Of a stretch of 64,000 nucleotides of DNA, positions 26,792-26,992 are shown in pieces. The notes under the pieces are model-generated. The model searched no databases, was not told where the DNA came from, and was given only the letters and a program-made list of their open reading frames with translations. The translations under genes were made by a program, and so were the position numbers. Location: the NCBI RefSeq assembly GCF_056712565.1, contig NZ_CM160072.1; one strand, 5' to 3'. Numbering within the stretch: the first letter of the stretch is position 1; each line of letters starts with the position of its first letter.

Positions 26792-26992
26792 ATGCAACAC
26801 GAACTACAACCTGATTCACTGGTTGATTTGAAATTCATCATGGCCGATACTGGCTTCGGTAAAACCTTCATCTATGACCGGATTAAGTCCGGCGACCTGC
26901 CAAAAGCCAAAGTTATCCACGGGCGAGCAAGATGGTTATATCGTGACCATTGTGAATTCAAAAATAAGCTCTTAAGCCGCGCCAATGGGTAA
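26792..26992 (+). CDS. torI: TorI excisionase-like recombination directionality factor
   Basis: 66-aa ORF MQHELQPDSLVDLKFIMADTGFGKTFIYDRIKSGDLPKAK... matching recalled K-12 TorI; adjacent to attR and dsdC as in K-12. Confidence 0.9.
   Translation: MQHELQPDSLVDLKFIMADTGFGKTFIYDRIKSGDLPKAKVIHGRARWLYRDHCEFKNKLLSRANG

Follow-up and report, generated by a model that had tools for sequence, protein, structure and literature searches.

torI and its attachment site

The window, i.e., the whole 64 kb stretch of DNA that was analysed, contains an ATG-to-TAA open reading frame (ORF) spanning exactly positions 26792..26992 on the plus strand. Its product, MQHELQPDSLVDLKFIMADTGFGKTFIYDRIKSGDLPKAKVIHGRARWLYRDHCEFKNKLLSRANG (66 aa), is identical at 66/66 positions to the "Tor inhibition protein" of PDB entry 1Z4H (E 6.6e-43), which was the sole match of the PDB search. 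Compared with K-12 torI, 4 of 201 bases differ, all of them synonymously. The protein also matched PHROG 66, "excisionase and transcriptional regulator" (E 2.7e-8). With the Pfam model HTH_17 (MerR-like excisionase), it scored 16.9 bits, which is under the gathering cut-off of 27, and the NCBIfam scan had no model matching it. Tyr28 and Arg45, the DNA-binding residues of TorI that were mutated in PMC3509656, can both be read directly in the translation. In the RefSeq annotation of ATCC 11775 and APEC O1, the same ORF is labelled torI. The coordinates of this and the other features are given in Table 1.

The earlier note had identified the ORF as torI and had named substitutions at TorR- or DNA-binding residues relative to K-12 TorI as what would speak against its reading. 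The identification was borne out by the complete identity of the two proteins: the alignment to K-12 TorI that the note had proposed contained zero substitutions, and its reading therefore stands on this point. The locus also has the hallmarks of the TorI/HkaC/P18 recombination directionality factors (RDFs), namely a winged-helix protein of about 66 aa with the TorI sequence and Y28/R45, encoded by the last prophage gene and adjoining an attR with the core CTGCAGGGGACACCAT. Judging from these sequence comparisons, it is highly probable that the ORF is torI, the excisionase/RDF of the argW-integrating KplE1/HK620/Sf6/CUS-3 module and the rightmost gene of a CUS-3-like prophage. Nothing that we found contradicts this identification.

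Table 1. Features of the window around torI and attR, with their coordinates and the basis on which they were assigned.
Feature	Coordinates	Strand	Basis and remarks
torI CDS, 66 aa + stop	26792..26992	+	RDF and TorR inhibitor; ORF, PDB, K-12 and PHROG matches
GGAG Shine-Dalgarno-like motif, 9 nt before ATG	26779..26782	+	Direct reading; same in K-12
torI-attR half of KplE1/HK620/Sf6 recombination module	26742..27082	+	Start of K-12 homology at 26742; phage records
attR core CTGCAGGGGACACCAT, 16 nt	27066..27081	+	IntS strand-exchange site; KplE1/HK620/Sf6 core; 74 nt past torI stop
Two direct GGGTAAAAT repeats, candidate IntS arm-type (P) sites of attR	26987..26995, 26999..27007	+	Overlap torI stop; putative assignment
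argW T-arm copy TTGCAGGTTCGATTCC, 16 nt	26757..26772	+	19 nt before torI ATG; labelled "attR core" in the CUS-3 record
Terminator-like hairpin + T-run, directly upstream of conserved module	26724..26750	+	Terminator scan; putative function
Two further terminator-like hairpins	26496..26527, 26528..26557	+	Terminator scan; putative function
cI-type repressor, HTH_3 + Peptidase_S24	20569..21219	+	Pfam; annotated "LexA family protein" in APEC O1 and ATCC 11775
Right ~27 kb of CUS-3-like, P22-like (Lederbergvirus) prophage, cut by left window edge	1..27065		Identity to CUS-3, APEC O1 and ATCC 11775
PGAP pseudogene calls	~16574..16895; ~24464..24547, ~25417..25671, ~25932..26217	-; +	nin/ea regions
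dsdC, host gene flanking attR	27180..28121	-	ORF and annotation of relatives

Homology to the KplE1 prophage of K-12 begins at 26742, and the sequence upstream of this position is unrelated to K-12. From 26742 to the core, the four synonymous torI differences and two base differences in the arm between the torI stop and the core are the only ones; the core itself is the same as in K-12 attR. The 341-bp stretch from torI to the core was found at full length and 96-99.7% identity in 19 phage records, including HK620, Sf6, Kapi1, and phiv205-1, and, when counted at a threshold of at least 95% identity, in 1404 of 5426 complete E. coli genomes. In HK620, Sf6, and Kapi1, which are virion genomes, the module is whole. 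(Pro)phages inserting at argW have been reported to share this module, with HkaC of HK620 and P18 of Sf6 being 100% identical to TorI (PMC3509656), and its listed carriers comprise CUS-3, HK620, Sf6, and prophages of APEC-O1 and UTI89 (PMC2951348). Neither the gene nor its setting is new: TorI-identical RDFs on complete phages and the APEC-O1/CUS-3 type of prophage have already been published.

The window has a single copy of the core CTGCAGGGGACACCAT, against a chance expectation of 0. A 17-base sequence, CTGCAGGGGACACCATT, spans 27066..27082 and corresponds to the 3' end of argW plus two bases. Its first 16 bases are the duplicated KplE1 core quoted in PMC2951348, and the 17-bp att site of Kapi1, AATGGTGTCCCCTGCAG, is the reverse complement of CTGCAGGGGACACCATT (PMC8787464). 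For both KplE1 and Kapi1, the core was defined experimentally (PMC2951348, PMC8787464). The "attP core" annotated in HK620 maps onto 27066..27081.

Between the torI stop and the core lies the putative P arm. The motif GGGTAAAAT has two copies in the whole 64 kb window, both in 26987..27007, and four members of its motif class are in attL next to intS, where the arm-type sites of IntS carry a conserved TAAA (PMC2951348). In the HK620 record, an "attP" repeat is annotated at the place corresponding to the two copies. We therefore treat the pair as candidate P-arm sites of IntS. The TorI pentamers (GTTCG, GTCCG, GATCG) and the IHF consensus were searched for in the attR arm and none was found there. 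The lack of the pentamers fits the binding of TorI on attL only, as the five TorI sites have been placed on attL and not on attR (PMC2951348). The intact attR that had been noticed at this locus is confirmed, in that core and P arm directly follow torI and are near-identical to those of K-12. A 50-aa ORF at 26985..27137 (+) overlaps the torI stop and extends through the attR core as far as host DNA. Its counterpart in HK620 is "hkaB", which lies across attP; in the prophage form, the ORF is unlikely to be a genuine gene.

The region to the left of attR belongs to the prophage. Positions 1-25000 are 99.4% identical to CUS-3 (CP000711.1) over 91% of their length, with the same gene order. Identity is 99.99% to APEC O1 over 1..30181 (30,182 bases) and 100% to ATCC 11775 over 1..29198 (29,198 bases). 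The genes present include those for morphogenesis (gp14/gp26/gp10/gp4-type head-completion proteins, coat, scaffold, portal, and terminase), lysis genes, Q, nin genes, replication genes, and an immunity and early region with cII, a P22-type cro, cI, an N-like gene, erf, anti-RecBCD, small ea genes, and torI. Both the nucleotide similarity and the order of the genes (coat, portal, gp4/gp10, lambdoid early region) agree with a CUS-3-like, P22-like prophage.

On the other side of attR, the DNA is that of the host. Five mismatches and one gap separate the host part (26748..63999) from ATCC 11775, with the prophage part being identical. Over the full window, none of the genomes in the collection matched perfectly, and the source is accordingly a close relative of the K1 strains APEC O1, S88, and ATCC 11775. 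The host part is ordinary core genome, with dsdCXA, emrKY, evgAS, yfdE-frc, lpxP, alaC, ypdABC, ptsP, fryBC, glk, mntH, and nupC. DsdC, encoded next to attR, has been described as a regulator linked to neuO, the capsule O-acetyltransferase gene of CUS-3-like prophages (PMC9659370). At the same locus, DsdC and neuO represent host-to-prophage control, the opposite direction to that of torI. The Rfam scan of the whole window returned no match.

Expression of torI and the host Tor pathway

The activities of TorI are known from K-12. There, the protein binds five attL sites and, with IntS and IHF, directs attL x attR excision, and it lowers the activity of the intS promoter (PMC2951348, PMC3509656). 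It also blocks TorR-dependent activation of torCAD, while TorR is still able to bind DNA (PMC2951348, PMC3509656). TorI binds both IntS and TorR, and these two compete for it in vitro (PMC3509656). For the gene described here, excision promotion and TorR inhibition are attributed by identity to the K-12 protein and are thus claims transferred from K-12 experiments.

When the gene would be expressed was assessed from its surroundings. The torI gene is the distal member of a leftward early string whose start is next to the cI-type repressor gene, itself transcribed in the direction of this string. The repressor is predicted to be cleavable in a RecA/SOS-dependent manner. Terminator-like sites numbered five in 1 kb against 1.1 expected, and three of them are on the plus strand not more than 300 nt upstream of torI. 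This cluster of hairpins suggests that torI is insulated from upstream transcription unless antitermination takes place. At the matching place in CUS-3, an N-like gene is annotated. In the HK620 record, the torI homologue is directly preceded by an annotated cII-dependent promoter, and a second route of torI expression is therefore possible.

Repressor cleavage, transcription from PL, and N-type antitermination are steps known from lambda and P22. Given the cI gene at the head of the same-strand string, the N-like gene in CUS-3, and the hairpins upstream of torI, we infer that torI is silent in the lysogen and made on SOS induction. RecA-mediated cleavage of the repressor would then lead to transcription from PL, which would extend to torI through N-type antitermination, and TorI together with IntS and IHF would carry out attL x attR excision. 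Inhibition of TorR would accompany induction and not stable lysogeny.

The partners of TorI in the host were examined in the closest genomes. The torR gene with its control region was found in 5415 of 5426 complete E. coli genomes. TorR of ATCC 11775 is identical to that of K-12 at 229 of 230 positions, with a single change, S46P, in the receiver half and a C-terminal half that is wholly identical. ATCC 11775 and APEC O1 both have intact torT and torCAD; with TorR near-identical, cross-talk is possible in principle. In these two genomes, torS is annotated as a frameshifted pseudogene owing to a 1-nt deletion seven codons from its end, which leaves an ORF of 910 instead of 914 aa with the last ~7 codons altered (loci L009 14595..17338 and L008 20676..23419). 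We considered whether this frameshift disables the Tor pathway and rejected the idea, as only the last ~7 codons are changed. For the same reason, the pseudogene label probably overstates the lesion, and the deletion is probably harmless.

The locus had previously been presented as an active example of phage-host regulatory cross-talk. This holds as far as the partner genes are concerned, all of which are present in the closest genomes. The sequence context, on the other hand, argues against expression in the lysogen; as expression is expected on induction only, the cross-talk is better described as potential than as active.

A competing reading, to which we assign a probability only a little short of even, is that torI is solely an excisionase here, and that TorR inhibition is a multicopy by-product without a physiological role, since every cell that makes TorI would already be bound for lysis. 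The position of torI at the far end of the early string beside the cI-type gene, behind three terminator-like hairpins, is in line with it. So is the way in which the activities came to light: a genetic screen identified TorI as a negative regulator, in vitro it is competed for by IntS and TorR (PMC3509656), and torI was IPTG-induced in every excision assay of PMC2951348. However, TorI is identical to the K-12 protein and TorR is near-identical, so the interaction should occur whenever TorI is present, and some TorI could be supplied by spontaneous induction in a subpopulation or by a second promoter such as that annotated in HK620.

A further and rather improbable proposal is that in an SOS-inducible CUS-3-like lysogen, unlike with the repressor-less KplE1, TorI is tied to induction (or to low-level spontaneous induction of a subpopulation) and would shut TMAO respiration via TorR. 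If true, the anti-TorR activity would here be of importance under natural conditions. An inducible CUS-3-like lysogen would in any case be a more natural system than KplE1 for studying the physiological role of TorR inhibition. Beyond correct annotation, the importance of the locus is slight, with the gene, its structure, its two activities, the att sites, and its presence in phages and prophages all published.

Completeness and boundary of the prophage

The prophage, CUS-3-like and ~40 kb long, is cut by the left window edge within its ejection-protein genes, and attL, intS, neuO, the tailspike gene, and immI therefore lie outside the window. In agreement with this, the tRNA scan of the window detected no tRNA gene, and so neither argW nor attL is inside. 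The left end was read in APEC O1, ATCC 11775, and Z0117EC0054, where argW, attL, intS, a neuO-type acetyltransferase gene, the tailspike gene, ant/arc/mnt, and two ejection genes are located 13-16 kb further left. Elements with this module integrate at argW between yfdC and dsdC; dsdC is in the window, and argW is located 40-43 kb leftward in these three genomes.

The partner half of the recombination module, IntS and an attL whose five TorI sites overlap the intS promoter, is present in the closest genomes. IntS of APEC O1 is identical to K-12 IntS at 385/385 positions, and attL of APEC O1 and ATCC 11775 differs from that of K-12 by three bases, none of them in the five TorI pentamers. As IntS is identical and the attL pentamers are kept, the whole characterised KplE1 module is present in these genomes. 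The left part of the APEC O1 prophage also contains genes for a ClpP-like protease subunit and, next to a small ORF, a YafO-family toxin (locus L001 13394..15003). They sit between the immI region and the ejection genes and may serve as cargo or in defence.

In the closest genomes, the left end encodes an endosialidase-type tailspike and an acetyltransferase (neuO), and its condition varies between strains. In ATCC 11775, an IS21-like element, ISEc12, is inserted between ant and a shortened tailspike gene (locus L002 37097..39399). In Z0117EC0054, the injection gene is frameshifted, and the place of neuO is taken by a short acyltransferase ORF (locus L011 2687..4700). The left end of APEC O1 carries no lesion. 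CUS-3-like prophages between argW and dsdC have been reported to decay often (PMC9659370).

The prophage had been described as apparently complete. The part in the window does look intact, apart from four small pseudogenes or partial genes that PGAP calls in the nin and ea regions of APEC O1 and ATCC 11775. Completeness as such goes beyond what the window shows, as the left end lies outside it and is variably damaged in near-identical strains. With regard to the PGAP calls, positions 25360..25932 of the window form one continuous ORF of 190 aa, equal in length to a CUS-3 CDS, and at least one of the calls may for this reason be an annotation matter.

The prophage could accordingly be a decaying remnant, in which torI and attR are leftovers like those of KplE1 and the element is excisable but is not a viable phage. 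We regard this as possible, though with a probability well under one half. The reported tendency of CUS-3-like prophages to decay, the insertion beside the tailspike gene in ATCC 11775, the injection gene frameshift in Z0117EC0054, and the four small pseudogene calls within the window all point towards it. Against this, every gene for head, packaging, lysis, replication, and immunity functions in the window is a full-length ORF, the left end of APEC O1 is without a lesion, and the pseudogene calls are confined to accessory regions.

A second repeat of argW raises the question of where the prophage ends. The T-arm copy TTGCAGGTTCGATTCC has a single occurrence in the window, where chance would give 0, and exactly matches the argW bases that precede the core. 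The module thus holds the last 32 nt of argW, split by an insert of ~293 bp with torI and the P arm, which suggests that torI was inserted into an older, longer tRNA-derived attP. In the CUS-3 record CP000711.1, TTGCAGGTTCGATTCC forms positions 1-16 and 40192-40207, which are labelled attL and attR core. The record runs from one copy of this repeat to the other and stops 19 nt short of the torI ATG, so that neither torI nor the true attR is included. In HK620, the position corresponding to TTGCAGGTTCGATTCC is inside a stretch annotated as a "phage integration" promoter; the annotated cII site reaches as far as the first bases of the repeat.

The junction of argW, repeat, and torI that a crossover at TTGCAGGTTCGATTCC predicts was present in 0 of 5426 genomes, and none of the phage records joined TTGCAGGTTCGATTCC to the core without torI. 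The junction query was covered to at least 80% by 14 records, all of them in two pieces, which spanned ~378 bp in the best 10 of the 14. With no deletion junction in any genome and no torI-less phage attP, we rejected TTGCAGGTTCGATTCC as a crossover site. It is very unlikely that the prophage boundary is at TTGCAGGTTCGATTCC, with torI a host-side gene that stays in the chromosome after excision: the labels of CP000711.1, its lack of torI, and the exact, non-chance nature of the repeat speak for it, but the absent junctions, the two-piece matches, the place of torI between repeat and core in the virion genomes HK620, Sf6, and Kapi1, and the experimental definition of the core in KplE1 and Kapi1 (PMC2951348, PMC8787464) all speak against it. 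Most likely, the boundaries of the CUS-3 record are a mis-assignment and TTGCAGGTTCGATTCC is an evolutionary trace. The CUS-3 reference record thus appears to stop at the wrong 16-nt repeat, omitting its own excisionase and true attR.

Comparison with known systems

A close relative is TorI of KplE1 (CPS-53) in K-12, which shares the 66/66 identical protein, the place beside attR and dsdC, the 16-nt core, and an arm that is two bases off. KplE1 is a 10.2 kb remnant that has no repressor and is not SOS-inducible (PMC2951348). Unlike in KplE1, torI in the window closes a string that comes from an immunity region of the cI/cro/N type in a prophage with full lytic genes.

CUS-3 of E. coli K1 RS218 (CP000711.1) is alike in sequence and gene order over most of positions 1-25000 and, in the closest genomes, in the endosialidase-type tailspike and neuO. 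It differs in some segments of the nin, ea, and immI regions (the 9% not covered). HK620 and Sf6 are likewise P22-like and integrate at argW, and besides the identity of HkaC and P18 to TorI (PMC3509656), their 341-bp torI-core stretch is 98.5-98.8% identical. They are free phage genomes with other tailspikes and O-antigen specificities, in which attP lies between the RDF gene and int, whereas the window shows a prophage, whose torI and intS are at its two ends.

A more distant counterpart is Xis of lambda, for which no significant sequence match was seen, the PDB search with TorI having given 1Z4H only. Like TorI, it bends att DNA and recruits Int as a small winged-helix RDF made from a leftward early operon (PMC3509656 and established knowledge). 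The xis gene is a neighbour of int, and Xis binds to the P arm, in attR, whereas TorI binds attL. Unlike lambda xis, torI is separated from its integrase gene by the length of the prophage, the two being at opposite ends and intS having its own promoter inside attL (PMC2951348).
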